Source: Escherichia coli (GTDB lineage Bacteria; Pseudomonadota; Gammaproteobacteria; Enterobacterales; Enterobacteriaceae). Taken from it: 64,000 nt of DNA. The stretch is taken from assembly GCF_003334305.1 (NCBI RefSeq), contig NZ_QOWS01000020.1; one strand, written 5' to 3'. A program made the translations under genes and the position numbers. A model generated the notes under the pieces. The model had not been told where the DNA came from, ran no database searches, and saw only the letters and a list, made by a program, of their open reading frames with translations. Positions 8,288-48,663 of this stretch are shown here, one piece after another; position 1 is the stretch's first letter; the number at the start of each line of letters is the position of its first letter.

Positions 8288-9424
8288 ATGGATTTACTGA
8301 TTATTTTGACCTATGTGGCTTTTGCATGGGCAATGTTTAAGATCTTCAAAATTCCCGTAAATAAATGGACCATTCCCACAGCGGCCCTGGGTGGAATATT
8401 TATTGTCAGCGGTCTAATTCTGTTAATGAACTATAACCATCCGTATACCTTCAAAGCGCAAAAAGCGGTTATTTCTATTCCTGTTGTCCCACAGGTGACA
8501 GGCGTGGTGATCGAAGTGACGGATAAGAAAAATACGCTGATTAAAAAAGGTGAGGTGCTATTTCGACTGGACCCGACGCGTTATCAGGCGCGGGTGGATC
8601 GGCTGATGGCGGATATCGTTACCGCAGAACATAAACAGCGGGCGTTGGGCGCAGAGTTAGATGAGATGGCGGCGAATACTCAGCAGGCAAAGGCCACGCG
8701 GGATAAATTCGCTAAAGAGTATCAGCGTTACGCACGCGGCAGCCAGGCGAAAGTAAACCCGTTTTCAGAACGCGATATTGATGTGGCGCGGCAAAATTAT
8801 CTGGCGCAGGAAGCCTCCGTAAAGTCATCGGCGGCGGAACAAAAACAGATCCAGAGCCAGCTGGATAGCCTGGTGTTGGGTGAACATTCTCAAATCGCCA
8901 GCCTGAAAGCGCAGCTCGCGGAAGCAAAATATAACCTTGAGCAGACGATAGTGCGTGCGCCGAGCGATGGTTATGTGACCCAGGTGCTGATTCGTCCGGG
9001 TACCTATGCCGCGTCGCTGCCGCTACGTCCGGTGATGGTGTTTATACCCGATCAGAAACGACAAATTGTGGCGCAGTTCCGTCAGAACTCCTTGCTGCGA
9101 CTGGCCCCTGGCGACGATGCGGAAGTGGTGTTTAACGCTCTGCCAGGCAAAGTGTTCAGCGGTAAGCTGGCAGCCATTAGTCCAGCTGTTCCCGGCGGAG
9201 CTTATCAGTCGACCGGCACCTTACAGACGTTAAACACAGCGCCGGGTTCAGATGGCGTTATCGCGACCATTGAACTGGATGAGCACACTGATTTGAGCGC
9301 TTTACCAGACGGTATTTACGCCCAGGTGGCGGTCTACTCTGATCATTTCAGCCATGTCTCGGTGATGCGCAAAGTGCTGTTACGCATGACCAGTTGGGTG
9401 CATTACCTTTATCTCGATCATTAA
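8288..9424 (+). CDS. yiaV: membrane-fusion (HlyD/EmrA-family) periplasmic adaptor protein
   Basis: 378 aa; N-terminal TM anchor then long coiled-coil-type region; synteny with yiaW. Confidence 0.85.
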
Positions 9425-10395
9425 TCTTCGCTTTCCGCCGCTTGTTCAGGCCGCAGTTGCTGCGACTGAGCAAGCTGGTGGCGAATTTCACGCAGCATTT
9501 CATCCAGCACATACTGGACCCGCCAGGGCTGGTATTCCCGTTTACGGAAGATAGCCACCAGATCCAGCCACCATTCATACGGGTGCTGAAAGCAGGGCAC
9601 CAGCGTGCCGTCTTGCAGATCGCTCTGCACACTTTTGTCTGGCGCAAACACAATCCCCAGGTGATTTCGTGCCAGCTCCAGCGCCGATTGCGTGTTATCG
9701 CAAACGTAATTTCCCTTCACGCGATAATCCCGCACCTCTTTACTCCCGGCGACGTTGAAGCGCCAGATATTCGCGTCATCAATCATCATCGAGTCGATCA
9801 AAATACAGGAGTGATGTTCGAGTTCGTCAGGACGGCTAATAGGATGTTTCTCAAGATAGCGCTGGCTGGCATAAGCGGTTACGGCATATTGGGTAATAAA
9901 ACTGGCAACCAGCGATTCATCTTTTGGTGGAGCGTAGCTGATTAAAACATCACAATCATCAGGAAATTCGACGCCTTCATAAAAGGCATTACGCTCAAGA
10001 TTGCAGGTTTTTAGCGATAAGGTGATATCACCGATATCTTTAATTTTATCGATTACATGTTTGGATAAATAGGTAATTATGCCGGTTGGGGCGTAGATGG
10101 TGACCCGACCACGTTTCTCATGCTTATAATCTGCAATAAAATTATTAAGCTGCTCGTTTCTGTCCAGCATGTCGTTGATGTACGGTAACAGCGCGGTGCC
10201 AAAAGGTGTGAGCATCAGTTGTCGGGTGGTTCGGTCAAAAACTTTTAAACCCACTTTTGATTCAAAATCAGCAAGATATTTGCTGACGTTGGCCTGTGCG
10301 ATGCCAAGTACAGTCGCGGCATGGCTGATATTTTCACTGGCAGCGATTACCGAGATAATTTTTAACTCCCGGTACTTAAGTTGTAATTTTGTCAT
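9421..10395 (-). CDS. yiaU: LysR-family transcriptional regulator
   Basis: 324 aa; N-terminal HTH typical of LysR; 3' end overlaps yiaV 3' end by 4 bp. Confidence 0.85.
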
Positions 10396-11259: not shown

Positions 11260-11605
11260 TTCACCGGTGGATGTCGGTGCGGCTGGTGCTCCGTCGTAAT
11301 GCCACAAAGGTTGTTGCTCTGGATTGCTCTGTTCATACCGGGAACCTGGCGTCTGAATCAGGATCTTATGGCTGAACAATCCCTTGCCTTCAAATGTCGT
11401 AAATGGCGCATCGGCGGGCAGCAACAGGTTATGCAGTGACTCGACGTTGTCGGCCTGCTCCATGCAATACGGTTTAATGACGTTGGCTATTTCCGGCAGA
11501 TTTTTCGCAAGCACACCGGTTTAACGCCAGCAGCGTGGAAGCGGCGTTACAGCAAGGAACATATCAATTCGTAGTGCCGGGGCGATGAAGCCCCGGCGTG
11601 AGGGA

Positions 11606-43692: not shown

Positions 43693-44352
43693 TTACAGCG
43701 GGCTTAAGGTAATTTCTACACGGCGGTTTTGCGCCTTACCTTCTGCGGTGCTGTTGCTGGCGATTGGGTTAGCCGGGCCAAGGCCCTGAGTACGGATGCG
43801 GCTGGCGTCCACGCCCTGGGTGATCAACGCGCTGGCAACGGAATCCGCACGTTGCTGGGAGAGACGCATGTTCAGGTCGTGACCACCCGTGCTGTCGGTA
43901 TAACCAATCACGTTAACCGCCGTTTTCGGATACTCTTTCAGCACCATTGCCACGCCGGTCAGGGTGTTAGCGCCCGCAGGTTTCAGGGTCGCGCTGCTGC
44001 TGTCGAAGGTCACATTGTTCGGCATATTGAGGATAATGTTATCCCCGCTGCGGGTTACGCTAACACCAGTGCCGCGCATTTTGTCACGCAGCTTCGCTTC
44101 CTGCACATCCATGTAATAACCCACGCCGCCGCCCAGAGCTGCGCCTGCTGCTGCGCCAATCAGCGCGCCTTTACCGCGATCTTTCTTCGAAGAAGAGAGC
44201 GCACCAATACCCGCGCCCACGAGAGAGCCCAGACCTGCGCCGATAGCAGATTTACCTGCTTCGCGTTCGCCGGTGTAAGGGTTAGTTGTGCAGCCAGATA
44301 CCGCCAGAGCGCCACTCACTACGGCGGCAATAAGATAAACACGTTTCTTCAT
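43693..44352 (-). CDS. yiaD: OmpA-domain lipoprotein
   Basis: 219 aa; lipobox AVSGC; Gly-rich linker; C-terminal OmpA-like domain. Confidence 0.8.
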   Translation of the reverse strand: MKKRVYLIAAVVSGALAVSGCTTNPYTGEREAGKSAIGAGLGSLVGAGIGALSSSKKDRGKGALIGAAAGAALGGGVGYYMDVQEAKLRDKMRGTGVSVTRSGDNIILNMPNNVTFDSSSATLKPAGANTLTGVAMVLKEYPKTAVNVIGYTDSTGGHDLNMRLSQQRADSVASALITQGVDASRIRTQGLGPANPIASNSTAEGKAQNRRVEITLSPL

Positions 44353-44504
44353 TGTTAATCCTTAATAACCTTTTTATTCTTTGCCACGGGTTCCGTGGCG
44401 GGAGATTATGCCGCGTGAACATGAAGATTATTCCTGGGAATACTCGGAAATTTGTAAGTAATATTTAACTGCTCAATACATCTAACCTTTCAGGAGTTTT
44501 CGGT

Positions 44505-46838
44505 TTGGCCAACTCATCCTCACGATATTCCGTTCTGACTGCCGCCCATTGGGGGCCCATGCTGGTTGAAACCGACGGCGAAACCGTGTTTAGCTCGCAT
44601 GGCGCGTTAGCCACAGGAATGGAAAACTCCTTGCAGAGCGCGGTTCGCGACCAGGTTCACAGCAATACACGGGTACGATTTCCAATGGTGCGCAAAGGCT
44701 TTCTTGCGTCACCGGAAAATCCGCAAGGCATTCGTGGGCAGGATGAATTTGTTCGCGTGAGTTGGGATGAGGCGCTGGATCTTATTCACCAACAACATAA
44801 ACGCATTCGTGAGGCTTATGGTCCGGCATCGATTTTTGCTGGTTCCTACGGCTGGCGTTCAAACGGCGTGCTGCATAAGGCCTCGACATTATTACAACGC
44901 TATATGGCGCTGGCAGGCGGTTATACCGGGCATCTGGGGGATTATTCGACCGGCGCGGCACAGGCGATCATGCCGTATGTCGTGGGTGGTAGCGAAGTTT
45001 ATCAACAGCAAACCAGTTGGCCGCTGGTGCTGGAACATAGCGATGTCGTGGTGTTGTGGAGTGCTAACCCACTCAATACGCTGAAAATTGCGTGGAATGC
45101 ATCTGATGAGCAGGGGCTTTCTTACTTTTCCGCACTGCGTGACAGCGGGAAAAAGCTGATCTGTATTGATCCAATGCGATCGGAAACCGTCGATTTCTTT
45201 GGCGATAAAATGGAGTGGGTGGCACCGCACATGGGCACCGATGTTGCGCTGATGCTGGGGATCGCCCATACGCTGGTGGAAAATGGTTGGCACGACGAAG
45301 CGTTTCTGACGCGTTGCACCACAGGTTATGCCGTCTTCGCCTCTTATTTGCTGGGCGAGAGTGACGGAATAGCGAAAAACGCCGAATGGGCGGCAGAGAT
45401 TTGTGGGGTTAACGCAGCGAAAATCCGCGAGCTGGCGGCTCTTTTCCACCAAAACACGACCATGCTGATGGCTGGCTGGGGAATGCAGCGCCAACAGTTT
45501 GGTGAGCAAAAACACTGGATGATCGTCACGCTGGCGGCAATGTTGGGGCAAATCGGCACACCCGGCGGCGGTTTTGGTCTTTCTTATCATTTTGCCAATG
45601 GTGGTAACCCCACGCGGCGTTCTGCGGTGCTCTCTTCCATGCAGGGCAGCTTGCCGGGTGGCTGCGATGCGGTGGATAAAATCCCTGTTGCCCGCATTGT
45701 TGAAGCACTGGAAAACCCTGGTGGCGCATATCAACACAACGGTATGAACCGACATTTCCCGGATATTCGTTTTATCTGGTGGGCGGGCGGTGCCAACTTT
45801 ACTCATCATCAGGATACCAATCGTCTGATCCGTGCCTGGCAAAAACCGGAGCTGGTGGTGATCTCTGAATGCTTCTGGACGGCGGCGGCGAAACACGCGG
45901 ATATCGTTCTGCCTGCGACTACCTCTTTTGAGCGTAATGATCTCACCATGACCGGTGATTACAGTAATCAGCATCTGGTGCCGATGAAGCAAGTGGTGCC
46001 GCCACGCTATGAAGCGCGTAATGATTTTGATGTTTTTGCCGAGTTGAGTGAACGTTGGGAGAAGGGCGGCTATGCGCGGTTTACGGAAGGAAAAAGTCAG
46101 CTGCAATGGCTGGAAACGTTTTATAACGTTGCCCGGCAGCGCGGGGCAAGCCAGCAGGTTGAATTGCCGCCATTTGCTGAGTTCTGGCAAGCCAACCAGT
46201 TAATTGAGATGCCGGAAAACCCGGACAGCGAGCGGTTTATTCGCTTCGCTGATTTTTGCCGCGATCCGCTGGCGCATCCGTTAAAAACCGCCAGCGGCAA
46301 GATTGAAATCTTCTCACAGCGTATTGCCGATTACGGTTACCCGGATTGCCCTGGGCATCCAATGTGGCTGGAGCCGGACGAATGGCAGGGCAATGCCGAA
46401 CCAGAACAGTTGCAGGTACTTTCTGCCCATCCGGCGCACCGCCTGCACAGCCAGCTGAATTACAGTTCTCTGCGCGAATTGTACGCGGTAGCAAACCGTG
46501 AGCCTGTCACCATTCATCCTGACGATGCTCAGGCGCGCGGCATAACCGAAGGGGATATGGTGCGGGTGTGGAACTCCCGTGGGCAGATCCTTGCCGGAGC
46601 GGTCATTAGCGAGGGAATTAAACCTGGCGTGATTTGCATTCACGAAGGGGCATGGCCGGATCTGGATTTAACCGCTGACGGTATTTGTAAAAACGGCGCA
46701 GTGAACGTGCTGACCAAAGATCTCCCCAGCTCGCGGCTGGGGAATGGCTGTGCGGGTAATACGGCGCTGGCATGGCTGGAAAAATACAACGGTCCGGAAC
46801 TGACACTTACAGCGTTTGAACCACCGGCCAGCTCATAA
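44505..46838 (+). CDS. bisC: biotin sulfoxide reductase (molybdopterin oxidoreductase)
   Basis: 777-aa ORF beginning at TTG 44505 per ORF track; start codon choice uncertain. Confidence 0.85.
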
Positions 46839-47247
46839 TCCAGGTGGGTAGTTGGGTTTCATCCTGCCATGCGCAATCGACAATGTGAAAACCCTGCGCA
46901 CGGTAAAAATCTATCGCCGGTTGATTTTTTTGATAAACCTCCAGCATCAGATGGGGATAGCGCTGCTGCACATACTGCATCAGCGCCTTACCAATACCGC
47001 GTCTGACGGCCTTCGGTGCGACAAACATTGCTGCCAGAAATCGGCCTTCCATAATGCTGACAAAACCGAGAAGCTTACCGTCCTCTTCCCAGACCCAGTT
47101 TTGCGCGTTGGCAAGATAGGCATCCCGCACCAGCGGAATGCAGTCACGCCAGTAATTCGCTTTTATAAAGGGATGCCCCCAGGTTGTACTTTCCAGCCAC
47201 AGTTCGAGGATCGCGGGGAGTTCTGAACGTTGCGCTTCCCGAATCAT
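46807..47247 (-). CDS. yiaC: GNAT-family N-acetyltransferase
   Basis: 146 aa; 3' end overlaps bisC 3' end by 32 bp (convergent). Confidence 0.75.
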
Positions 47248-47807
47248 GGTTTATTTCCCGGATAGCAACAGCAGCCAACCACATGATCATTCACCAGCCC
47301 ACATGCCTGCATAAAGGAGTAACAGATTGTGGTGCCGACAAACTTAAAACCACGCTTTTTCAGGGCTTTAGATAGAGCGTCGGAGGCGGACGTAGATGTG
47401 GGAATTTCGCTCAACGTTGTGGCTTGTGTCACCTGTGGCTGATGATTTACAAACGACCAGACAAAGTCGGCAAACGGTTCGCCGTTCTGTTCCATTTGCA
47501 GGTACGCCCGCGCATTACCAATAATTGCCTGAATTTTCCCTCGATGGCGGATAATCCCGGCGTCCTGTACCAGTCTTTCGACATCCTCTTCCTGCATTGC
47601 TGCGACCTTCACCGGATCGAACTGATGAAAGCAGGCGCGATAGTTTTCGCGTTTTTTGAGGACGGTGATCCACGATAACCCAGCCTGCTGCCCTTCAAGG
47701 CAGATCATTTCGAACAGTTTTTTACTGTCAGTTTCAGGCACGCCCCATTCATTATCATGGTAGGCAATATAAAGCGGGTCCTGACTCACCCAGCCGCAAC
47801 GTTCCAT
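47244..47807 (-). CDS. tag: DNA-3-methyladenine glycosylase I
   Basis: ORF track extends to 48044; trimmed to ATG 47807 (MERCGWVSQDPLYIAYHDNEWGVP); 187 aa. Confidence 0.85.
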   Translation of the reverse strand: MERCGWVSQDPLYIAYHDNEWGVPETDSKKLFEMICLEGQQAGLSWITVLKKRENYRACFHQFDPVKVAAMQEEDVERLVQDAGIIRHRGKIQAIIGNARAYLQMEQNGEPFADFVWSFVNHQPQVTQATTLSEIPTSTSASDALSKALKKRGFKFVGTTICYSFMQACGLVNDHVVGCCCYPGNKP

Positions 47808-47964
47808 ACTTTCCCTCGCTATGTACCCGATCGTAAAAATTTCAGCCGCTTTTCTTGACGCATCGGTGAAAAAGTCAATATTTAATACAGGGCTACTATG
47901 CCCGATATCCTTCATACAATGACAATAATATTGCCGAATTCGGCTCTTCCCTGGAGTCGTGTTA

Positions 47965-48663
47965 ATGATCATAAAAAAAAGCGGTGGTCGCTGGCAGCTA
48001 AGCCTGCTGGCGAGCGTGGTAATCAGTGCCTTTTTTCTCAACACAGCTTACGCCTGGCAACAAGAATATATCGTTGATACGCAACCCGGACATTCCACAG
48101 AGCGTTACACCTGGGATAGTGATCATCAACCTGATTACAACGATATTTTGTCGCAACGTATTCAAAGTAGCCAAAGGGCGCTGGGACTGGAAGTCAATCT
48201 GGCGGAAGAAACTCCTGTGGATGTGACCAGCAGTATGAGTATGGGCTGGAATTTTCCTTTATATGAACAGGTTACAACCGGCCCGGTCGCGGCATTACAT
48301 TACGATGGCACAACCACCTCGATGTATAACGAGTTTGGCGACAGTACTACCACGCTGACCGATCCGTTATGGCATGCCAGCGTGAGTAGCTTAGGCTGGC
48401 GTGTTGACTCCCGGCTTGGCGATCTCCGACCCTGGGCGCAAATCAGCTATAACCAGCAATTTGGCGAGAATATCTGGAAGGCGCAATCAGGCCTGAGCCG
48501 GATGACGGCGACAAACCAGAACGGCAACTGGCTGGATGTCACCGTAGGCGCTGATATGTTGCTCAATCAAAATATTGCCGCCTATGCCGCGCTAACTCAG
48601 GCAGAAAATACCACTAATAATAGCGACTATCTGTATACGATGGGGGTTAGTGCCAGATTTTAA
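47965..48663 (+). CDS. yhjY: autotransporter beta-domain-like outer membrane protein
   Basis: ORF starts GTG 47959 / ATG 47965; signal peptide; C-terminal ...GVSARF. Confidence 0.7.
   Translation: MIIKKSGGRWQLSLLASVVISAFFLNTAYAWQQEYIVDTQPGHSTERYTWDSDHQPDYNDILSQRIQSSQRALGLEVNLAEETPVDVTSSMSMGWNFPLYEQVTTGPVAALHYDGTTTSMYNEFGDSTTTLTDPLWHASVSSLGWRVDSRLGDLRPWAQISYNQQFGENIWKAQSGLSRMTATNQNGNWLDVTVGADMLLNQNIAAYAALTQAENTTNNSDYLYTMGVSARF

Follow-up and report, generated by a model that had tools for sequence, protein, structure and literature searches.

Convergent coding overlaps at bisC/yiaC and yiaV/yiaU in Escherichia coli: ordinary tail-to-tail gene ends with probable Rho-dependent termination inside the partner gene

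In prokaryotic genomes, convergent genes may overlap as genuine opposite-strand coding sequences with common 3' ends, and two surveys of E. coli have counted 58 (Lillo and Krakauer 2007, PMC2174442) and 75 (Huvet and Stumpf 2014, PMC4161906) such overlaps. Among these, 4 bp is the modal overlap length, with TTAA as one of four permitted tetramers (PMC2174442), and short convergent overlaps most often take phase (123:132) (PMC2174442, PMC4161906). Predicted intrinsic terminators lie inside the partner coding sequence in 21 of the 58 overlaps of the earlier survey (PMC2174442). At the level of transcripts, Adams et al. 2021 (PMC7815308) reported read-through into the antisense strands of bisC and yiaV, with termination there depending on Rho, and both yiaC-bisC and yiaU-yiaV are among the 165 convergent excludons of MG1655 identified with ExcludonFinder (NAR 2025, PMC12288877), a listing that takes up pairs detected in ≥50% of 58 MG1655 transcriptomes (RNA-seq). 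Both overlaps, the overlap of their transcripts, and the Rho-dependent read-through are, in other words, already known from the E. coli annotation and from published genome-wide data. Relative to the described class of convergent overlapping pairs, nothing essential differs at these two loci; the addition made here is a span of 70 species and three positions of the yiaC stop. We consider it quite probable that the two overlaps are ordinary ones, that transcription ends within the opposite gene by Rho-dependent termination without a spacer, that interference between the units is small, and that bisC is translated from its annotated TTG.

The two pairs lie in one window, a 64,000-nucleotide stretch of an E. 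coli contig, with the following features (positions are those of the window).

44505-46838, plus strand: bisC coding sequence (biotin sulfoxide reductase, 777 aa; TTG start, TAA stop), from the ORF list and RefSeq
46807-47247, minus strand: yiaC coding sequence (GNAT peptidyl-lysine N-acetyltransferase, 146 aa), from the ORF list, RefSeq, and YjaB homology
46807-46838, both strands: bisC/yiaC convergent coding overlap, 32 bp, phase (123:132)
47244-47807, minus strand: tag (3-methyladenine DNA glycosylase I), from RefSeq and the ORF list
8288-9424, plus strand: yiaV coding sequence (HlyD-family membrane fusion protein), from the ORF list and RefSeq
9421-10395, minus strand: yiaU coding sequence (LysR-family regulator), from the ORF list and RefSeq
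9421-9424, both strands: yiaV/yiaU convergent overlap, 4 bp TTAA forming back-to-back TAA stops, phase (123:213)

The original prediction had placed a 32-bp overlap at 46807-46838 and a 4-bp overlap at 9421-9424. The former was borne out by the ORF list, the sequence, and the RefSeq boundaries, and the latter by the TTAA read in the sequence, with which RefSeq agrees. The 3' end of bisC reads GAA CTG ACA CTT ACA GCG TTT GAA CCA CCG GCC AGC TCA TAA, and that of yiaC, in reverse complement, ATT ATG AGC TGG CCG GTG GTT CAA ACG CTG TAA. The 32 bp common to both genes therefore comprise, on each strand, the stop codon, nine sense codons, and 2 nt of a tenth, which the earlier wording of "last 10 codons" describes closely enough. 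The overlap would have vanished with another start codon or a stop codon further upstream; no such codon was found, and both protein ends are conserved. Coding up to both stops is genuine for bisC/yiaC, and for yiaU/yiaV the basis is the annotation.

RefSeq/PGAP boundaries were identical in K-12 AB1157, in MG1655, and in a strain whose sequence matches the 1.1-kb query exactly. In MG1655, yiaC occupies 3713652-3714092 (+) and bisC 3714061-3716394 (-), with yiaU at 3751992-3752966 (+) and yiaV at 3752963-3754099 (-). The 91-bp bisC/yiaC junction was present at ≥95% identity in 5,422 of 5,426 complete E. coli genomes, and the yiaU/yiaV junction in 3,775 of the 5,426. In 50 kb of annotated DNA of strain 504838, a stretch that carries both junctions yet is collinear with the window only in part, these two pairs are the only ones of 10 convergent junctions to overlap; the other eight have spacers of 31-218 bp. 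Taken as a class, the bisC/yiaC and yiaV/yiaU overlaps are no more than expected by chance, and both are ordinary tail-to-tail coding overlaps, already annotated and already catalogued.

What the comparison between species adds is the conservation of the bisC/yiaC overlap over 70 species, a movable yiaC stop, an ancestral BisC end, and a hairpin with some synonymous covariation. All 70 orthologous loci with intact sequence, each from a different Enterobacteriaceae species, carry the bisC/yiaC overlap, with a length of 38 bp in 38 species, 32 bp in 27, and 23 bp in 5. This makes the overlap a stable and real feature of the locus; it was always 3n+2 long and always in phase (123:132), in which codon position 3 of bisC or yiaC faces position 2 of the other gene. 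From this distribution, the arrangement is at least as old as the common ancestor of the sampled Enterobacteriaceae. The C-terminal 258 aa of BisC align to the extreme C-terminus of solved DMSO/TMAO reductases (1eu1, 7l5i), reaching residue 778 of 780 in the DMSO reductase 1eu1, and Citrobacter BisC paralogues that have no yiaC downstream possess a C-terminal end of equal length. The BisC C-terminus accordingly is ancestral and of family-typical length. Extension of bisC into yiaC through loss of a stop codon was also considered and was rejected because the BisC end matches both the solved homologues and the yiaC-less Citrobacter paralogues.

On the other strand, YiaC resembles YjaB (PDB 2kcw, E = 4.6e-13), and its AlphaFold2 model has a mean pLDDT of 95.6, with the final strand at residues 133-140 and low confidence for residues 141-146. 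W136, M138, and W140 are invariant in the orthologue alignment, and the disordered tail that follows varies in length between genera. The overlap can be divided as follows.

46828-46838: end of YiaC strand beta-7 (I137 partial, M138, S139, W140) against the last BisC codons
46807-46827: YiaC disordered tail and stop against BisC ...LTAFEPP

Structured residues of both proteins are thus encoded by only ~11 bp of the bisC/yiaC overlap. In a comparison that counts related species as independent, the entropy of bisC third positions was 0.45-0.69 bits in the overlap versus 1.20 bits elsewhere (Mann-Whitney p ~3e-4 to 7e-4), and the third position facing the second base of the YiaC W140 codon (position -9) had an entropy of 0. 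The final 7-12 bisC codons, read in antisense, specify the end of YiaC strand beta-7 (I-M-x-W), where the structured part of the protein closes, together with the short tail, and the yiaC stop falls wherever bisC codons spell TAA on the opposite strand, giving the 23-, 32-, or 38-bp versions. The overlap probably persists because both protein ends are under purifying selection, as the conservation of both demonstrates, and because nothing would favor their separation.

At its other end, bisC begins with a TTG, and the original prediction regarded this start as uncertain and its Shine-Dalgarno spacing as long.

44492-44507, plus strand: bisC start, with the Shine-Dalgarno AGGAG at 44492-44496, an 8-nt spacer, and TTG at 44505-44507

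Neither concern holds up. The spacer of 8 nt is in the usual range, and AGGAG precedes the aligned TTG by 7-8 nt in 56 loci; in most of the remaining bisC orthologues, a TTG or GTG lies two codons downstream with the spacing unchanged, and a TTG or GTG with this Shine-Dalgarno is kept in ~68 of 70 species. The gene hence has what characterizes a canonical start, namely a conserved start codon 5-10 nt after the Shine-Dalgarno and ahead of conserved protein sequence. Many species have Ile or Val in place of the next in-frame ATG (codon 19), and residues 7-18 of BisC align to the N-terminal part of TMAO and DMSO reductases of solved structure; the residues that precede this ATG are part of the conserved DMSO-reductase fold. 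Translation of bisC begins at the annotated TTG.

The stop codon of tag overlaps the ATG of yiaC by 4 bp (47244-47247, ATGA), a layout typical of co-transcribed and translationally coupled genes, from which we infer a tag-yiaC operon. This presumed operon and bisC converge without a spacer, and the original prediction had concluded that there is no room for a terminator and that transcription must collide or read through. The second part of this stands as far as read-through is concerned, since transcripts must pass the stop into the other gene, in agreement with the excludon listing (PMC12288877) and the published read-through (PMC7815308). The first part does not, as termination signals work without intergenic DNA: a Rho-dependent region lies inside antisense bisC, and a candidate hairpin lies inside bisC. 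For tag-yiaC, the antisense-bisC Rho peak is at MG1655 3714344 (+), ~252 nt past the yiaC stop, with a Rho score of 7.30 and a significance of 5.5e-14; coverage went from 90 to 23 without BCM and from 60 to 112 with BCM (PMC7815308). The antisense-yiaV Rho peak is at MG1655 3753583 (+), ~617 nt past the yiaU stop, with a Rho score of 4.98 and a significance of 1.9e-8 (PMC7815308). These peaks delimit two zones in the window.

46555-46806, minus strand: tag-yiaC read-through zone, antisense to bisC, up to the Rho peak (MG1655 3714344, equal to window position ~46555)
8804-9420, minus strand: yiaU read-through zone, antisense to yiaV, up to the Rho peak, with a window position that assumes yiaV to be free of indels

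Because the Term-seq sheet of the same study has no entry between 3710464 and 3717247, termination at tag-yiaC / bisC is resolved to the ~800-nt window of the Rho score. The Rho table contains no entry for the sense strands of bisC or yiaV (PMC7815308), and the SMRT-Cappable-seq supplement makes no mention of precise 3' ends or of other data for these pairs. The composition of the RNA past the stops is consistent with Rho-dependent termination: in 78-nt windows along the ~300 nt that follow the yiaC stop, where the RNA is untranslated, C-rich, and G-poor (rut-like), C/G ranges from 1.15 to 2.0, and downstream of the bisC stop it is 1.3-2.1 at +100 to +320. In this respect, the locus is like the Rho-dependent antisense read-through described before, with BCM-sensitive regions antisense to bisC and yiaV and C-rich, G-poor RNA past the stop; it differs in that these regions are mapped in the yiaC and yiaU directions only, the ends of bisC and yiaV lying outside the published table. 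Given the published BCM data, tag-yiaC transcripts would enter antisense bisC for a few hundred nucleotides, with their untranslated C-rich RNA ended by Rho, and the yiaU transcript would likewise be terminated by Rho within yiaV. The 3' end of bisC is probably Rho-dependent too and would lie inside antisense yiaC-tag, as suggested by the stretches with more C than G.

A scan for terminator-like sites yielded one structure in the tag-yiaC read-through zone.

46722-46744, minus strand: GC-rich hairpin UUCCCCAGC-CGCGA-GCUGGGGAG, then AUCUUUGGU, 63-85 nt past the yiaC stop and within bisC codons

Read along the minus strand from 46744 to 46722, the hairpin has a stem of nine pairs, six of them GC. 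Its free energy of -18.3 kcal/mol is in the top 0.7% of 40-nt windows, and it appears in both the minimum-free-energy fold and the centroid fold. There are ~98 sites of equal or greater stability in 128 kb (both strands), which rules out statistical exceptionality as a stand-alone argument. The U-tract is poor, the tail being AUCUUUGGU. Most genera retain the hairpin; Klebsiella, Raoultella, Cedecea, and Shimwellia have lost it. Its pair 11-29 covaries at synonymous sites (CG in 29, GC in 10, and UA in 2, with related species counted as independent). It is a candidate for a weak intrinsic terminator or for a stem that may protect the 3' end of the tag-yiaC mRNA against 3' exonucleases, and in one of these roles it would probably aid the ending of this transcript.

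The SEnd-seq work of Ju et al. (2019) is said to have found bidirectional intrinsic terminators between convergent genes. Like those, bisC/yiaC is a convergent pair with a GC-rich palindromic stem near its junction; unlike those, it has no intergenic region, and its stem lies in bisC, without A-tract/U-tract symmetry and with a weak U-run on the yiaC-sense strand only. The hairpin is flanked by CAGCCAUU and AGAUCUUUGG, without an A-tract, and its stem lies outside the overlap and inside bisC, so that it does not qualify as a bidirectional intrinsic terminator. On the plus strand, no intrinsic terminator was found by the scan after the bisC stop, and the only stem before a T7 run at 46923-46929 is weak and A/U-paired, with a fold no better than that of shuffled sequence. 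Around the junction, folds compared with shuffled sequence gave z-scores from -0.64 to +0.72; at 46790-46860, neither strand folds beyond shuffled sequence (z-scores +0.72 and +0.34). A search of 44000-48500 against Rfam at E ≤ 1 returned no match.

Several other explanations could be offered for what is seen at bisC/yiaC. One is that the start of bisC or the end of yiaC or bisC has been miscalled and that there is no true coding overlap. TTG is rare as a start codon, the original prediction doubted the bisC start, and the final 6 residues of YiaC form a tail of predicted disorder that has different lengths in different genera. A 3' overlap is, however, unaffected by where a gene starts, and both stops are unambiguous in the sequence; moreover, the BisC end aligns with the C-terminus of solved homologues, M138 and W140 of YiaC lie inside the overlap as invariant residues of a confidently modeled beta-strand, the bisC third position opposite the second base of W140 never varies, and the TTG is conserved along with its Shine-Dalgarno. 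A miscalled gene end is hardly credible on this evidence and can be regarded as refuted as far as sequence analysis reaches. A second possibility, that the conserved target is a dedicated RNA or DNA element shared by both genes in the overlap region (a bidirectional intrinsic terminator or a small RNA), draws on the palindromic GC-rich stem at 46722-46744, into which either transcript can fold and in which some of the synonymous changes are compensatory. Yet this stem lies 63 nt away from the overlap, has a weak and one-sided U-tract with no A-tract/U-tract symmetry, and is lost in the Klebsiella/Raoultella clade, where the overlap is retained; together with the unremarkable folding of 46790-46860 on either strand and the lack of an Rfam match, this makes such an element very improbable.

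A third possibility is regulatory, namely that selection keeps the overlap because convergent transcription, RNase III acting on a 3'-3' duplex, or both make the expression of bisC and tag-yiaC, and of yiaV and yiaU, mutually exclusive, which would amount to the antagonistic coupling suggested in the original prediction. Both pairs belong to the published MG1655 excludome; excludon pairs in general are more syntenic and less co-expressed in single cells than other neighbors (PMC12288877), a class-level result that does not bear on these two pairs in particular; published data show read-through extending ≥~250 nt into bisC (PMC7815308); and 70 species share the bisC/yiaC overlap. For these pairs, the mRNAs do overlap in antisense, at their 3' ends as in other excludons. 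However, the overlap is here forced by overlapping coding sequences rather than by long 3' UTRs, so that the listing adds nothing beyond the annotation, and mutual repression, the trait that defines excludons, is hypothetical for bisC/yiaC and yiaU/yiaV. The dual protein-coding constraint fully explains the conservation, and pair-specific data on anticorrelation, dsRNA, or RNase III were not found in the literature. A sulfoxide reductase is also not known to have any evident functional connection to a DNA glycosylase/acetyltransferase operon, which counts against regulation of this kind. Validation of dsRNA with p19 was unfeasible for convergent pairs (PMC12288877). Expression is low, at 90 reads per 800 nt versus thousands at strong loci in one table (PMC7815308), and since both units are weakly expressed, polymerase collisions, the other half of the original prediction, and duplexes are probably infrequent and mutual repression small, an argument that draws on this coverage from a single data set and on polymerase kinetics in general. 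Overall, mutually exclusive expression seems unlikely for these pairs. A stronger version, in which the hairpin forms part of a selected 3'-end module that sets the end of the tag-yiaC mRNA inside bisC and the antisense overlap tunes BisC versus tag-yiaC, making the locus a true excludon with a terminator embedded in a coding sequence, appears quite improbable.

Under the reading of ordinary overlaps with termination inside the partner gene, these pairs present no termination paradox, and there is no real doubt on the bisC start. The finding matters little in general terms, as convergent overlaps of such lengths and phases form a well-described class. Its incremental points could illustrate dual-coding constraint in teaching or give excludon studies a locus to test: the overlap shared by 70 species, the yiaC stop that shifts among three positions dictated by bisC codons, the ~11 bp that encode structured residues of both proteins, and a hairpin, possibly under selection, that is carried by synonymous sites of bisC.

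The window is E. coli chromosome and spans selB-yiaY...xyl...glyQS...ghrB-yiaD-bisC-yiaC-tag-yhjY; the four genes of the two convergent pairs are as follows:

44505-46838, plus strand: bisC (biotin sulfoxide reductase), 777 aa, TTG start, from the mechanical ORF list
46807-47247, minus strand: yiaC (GNAT peptidyl-lysine N-acetyltransferase), 146 aa, from the mechanical ORF list
8288-9424, plus strand: yiaV
9421-10395, minus strand: yiaU

That both overlaps are real, as originally noted, was borne out by the ORF list, by the sequence, and by RefSeq, which gives the same boundaries for both pairs in K-12 AB1157, in MG1655, and in a strain that matches the 1.1-kb query exactly. The bisC/yiaC pair shares 32 bp (46807-46838), where bisC ends ...ACA CTT ACA GCG TTT GAA CCA CCG GCC AGC TCA TAA and yiaC, on the opposite strand, ends ATT ATG AGC TGG CCG GTG GTT CAA ACG CTG TAA; the phase is (123:132), with bisC codon position 1 opposite yiaC position 1, 2 opposite 3, and 3 opposite 2. 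The yiaV/yiaU pair shares TTAA (9421-9424) in phase (123:213). At its other end, the yiaC ATG overlaps the stop of tag (3-methyladenine DNA glycosylase I) by 4 bp (47244-47247), an arrangement that co-transcribed, translationally coupled genes typically show; yiaC therefore presumably comes last in a tag-yiaC operon that converges on bisC.

The 91-bp bisC/yiaC junction was found at ≥95% identity in 5,422 of 5,426 complete E. coli genomes, compared with 3,775 of 5,426 for the yiaU/yiaV junction (window 9370-9480), which indicates that the yiaU-yiaV region is accessory in E. coli. When one genome per species was scanned with the C-terminal 258 aa of BisC, 80 loci were returned (70 intact orthologous, 2 disturbed, and 8 carrying a Citrobacter BisC paralogue). 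In all 70 intact loci, yiaC was convergent to and overlapped bisC, across Escherichia, Citrobacter, Salmonella, Klebsiella, Raoultella, Enterobacter, Kosakonia, Kluyvera, Leclercia, Lelliottia, Trabulsiella, Phytobacter, Superficieibacter, Pseudocitrobacter, Silvania, Cedecea, and Shimwellia; the overlap measured 38 bp (n=38), 32 bp (n=27), or 23 bp (n=5), always in the same phase. The bisC 3' end was disturbed by N and frameshifts in Trabulsiella odontotermitis strain 01 and Citrobacter amalonaticus AUH_CA_2023_1 (L055 and L073), probably reflecting assembly errors and not real overlap loss. The paralogue, present at a separate locus in several Citrobacter species (L074-L082), is ~61% identical to BisC across the C-terminal 258 aa, is not followed by yiaC, and carries the N-terminal motif AARWG in place of AAHWG. 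Elsewhere, the yiaT-sgbE gap is only 346 bp in the window (11260-11605), as in K-12, where the pseudogene remnants ysaC and ysaD are annotated between the two genes. Strain 504838, although identical to the window over the 1.1-kb bisC-yiaC query, carries there a ~4.4-kb island (L084 7152-11574) that encodes a GH127 glycoside hydrolase, an MFS transporter, and an AraC-family regulator, so the window comes from another strain.

An extension of bisC into yiaC was ruled out. The BisC C-terminus (...LTLTAFDPPASS) is conserved, equals in length that of the Citrobacter paralogues lacking yiaC (...KLTVFDEPxIVTM), and aligns with the extreme C-terminus of solved DMSO/TMAO reductases (e.g., 1eu1, residue 778/780). 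For YiaC, an AlphaFold2 model based on 70 orthologues (mean pLDDT 95.6) places the last beta-strand at residues 133-140 (LPTWIMSW), and residues 141-146 are of low confidence and without secondary structure; W136, M138, and W140 are invariant, and YjaB (2kcw, 147 aa), the nearest paralogue with a solved structure, is about as long. Therefore, the model predicts that only ~11 bp of the overlap (46828-46838) encode structured YiaC residues, opposite the variable last BisC residues and stop, and that a floppy YiaC tail takes up the other 21 bp. The length of this tail is fixed by where bisC codons chance to spell a stop on the opposite strand, with 32 or 38 bp arising from CTT-AC and, in Kluyvera, 23 bp from TTT-AAT. 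Bits of third-position entropy in bisC fell from 1.20 in the preceding 237 codons to 0.45-0.69 in the last 7-12 codons (Mann-Whitney p ~3e-4 to 7e-4, indicative only, as the species are phylogenetically related), and the third position facing the W140 codon's middle base did not vary. A dual coding constraint is thus visible in the overlap.

The bisC start had been considered uncertain owing to a TTG with long SD spacing. However, AGGAG (44492-44496) precedes the TTG (44505) by a normal 8-nt spacer, and no other ATG, GTG, or TTG occurs from the upstream in-frame stop (-39) to codon 19, where many species have Ile or Val. In 56 species loci, TTG stands at this position of the alignment with AGGAG lying 7-8 nt upstream of it, and in most other loci TTG or GTG occurs two codons further downstream at equal spacing. 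As BisC residues 7-18 can also be aligned to the N-terminal part of solved TMAO/DMSO reductases, the annotated start is well supported and the doubt about it is not. In one Escherichia species representative, the cryptic-clade-like strain SCPM-O-B-8794 (L007), TTA replaces the TTG of window 44505-44507, which suggests that the start may have been lost or relocated in this lineage.

Published data show that transcripts do read through into the convergent partner, as had been anticipated. A Rho termination peak at MG1655 3714344 (+) is classed as antisense to bisC (Adams et al. 2021, PMC7815308, supplementary file 2), with coverage falling from 90 to 23 without the Rho inhibitor bicyclomycin (BCM) and going from 60 to 112 with it (Rho score 7.30, significance 5.5e-14). 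As yiaC stops at MG1655 3714092, this places the peak 252 nt beyond the stop, near window 46555; the C/G ratio of 1.15-2.0 over the ~300 nt of RNA that follow the stop is consistent with Rho loading. A second Rho region at 3753583 (+), antisense to yiaV (Rho score 4.98; PMC7815308), lies 617 nt past the yiaU stop (MG1655 3752966). The supposition that the bisC/yiaC overlap leaves no room for a terminator therefore fails, since Rho terminates within the partner gene and intrinsic terminators are predicted inside partner coding sequences in 21 of 58 E. coli convergent overlaps (Lillo and Krakauer, PMC2174442). The bisC and yiaV 3' ends have no entry in the Adams et al. table (PMC7815308). Because C>G stretches occur from +100 to +320 past the bisC stop and a consensus scan found no terminator-like hairpin downstream of it, we infer that bisC termination would also be Rho-dependent. 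A terminator-like site at window 46288-46300 (-), TTGCCGCTGGCGG followed by TTTTT, lies ~507 nt past the yiaC stop and beyond the published Rho peak; of all 40-nt windows in bisC, the one around this site is the most stable (-19.3 kcal/mol).

The consensus scan also returned one element closer to yiaC:

46744..46722, minus strand (yiaC-sense): GC-rich 9-bp hairpin, 63 nt past the yiaC stop

This hairpin (UUCCCCAGC-CGCGA-GCUGGGGAG, then AUCUUUGGU) lies within the bisC codons for DLPSSRLGN, is made of rare codons (CTC-CCC ... GGG), and appears in both minimum-free-energy and centroid folds. Its stem is kept in most genera and lost in Klebsiella, Raoultella, Cedecea, and Shimwellia, where the overlap persists. 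The pair at alignment columns 11-29 covaries (C-G 29, G-C 10, U-A 2) through synonymous third-position changes in Leu and Gly codons, with a score reached in 0 of 500 shuffles and lower in slid controls. Set against this, the U-tract is weak, ~98 sites on both strands of the window form hairpins equally or more stable, and one Term-seq sheet lists no 3' end here. The hairpin is tentatively a plausible candidate for a weak tag-yiaC terminator or 3'-exonuclease block, short of an established element. The bisC/yiaC junction itself folded no better than shuffled sequence, and an Rfam search of 44000-48500 matched no family.

RNA polymerases move at tens of nucleotides per second, so the ~300-nt shared zone would be crossed in seconds, and encounters between polymerases from weakly firing convergent promoters should be rare in bisC/yiaC. 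Read-through coverage from tag-yiaC is low, at 90 reads per 800 nt versus thousands at strong loci (PMC7815308 table). Both yiaC-bisC and yiaU-yiaV are listed among 165 convergent excludons (overlapping, oppositely oriented transcription units) of MG1655, for which RNA-seq coverage had to overlap in at least 50% of 58 transcriptomes (PMC12288877), a property that overlapping coding sequences possess automatically. Higher synteny and less single-cell co-expression are reported for excludons as a class and are not pair-specific, and convergent pairs were not amenable to the dsRNA validation (PMC12288877). Antagonistic coupling of the convergent partners, as originally proposed, seems quite improbable.

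As a class, the two overlaps are nothing unusual. Counts of convergent coding overlaps in E. coli stand at 58 (Lillo and Krakauer, PMC2174442) and 75 (Huvet and Stumpf, PMC4161906), and the modal length is 4 bp, for which the possible tetramers are limited to CTAA, TTAA, CTAG, and TTAG (PMC2174442). In an annotated 50 kb sharing both junctions, these two were the overlapping ones among 10 convergent junctions, the other 8 having spacers of 31-218 bp. The feature belongs among the ordinary convergent coding overlaps and had been annotated and catalogued before.
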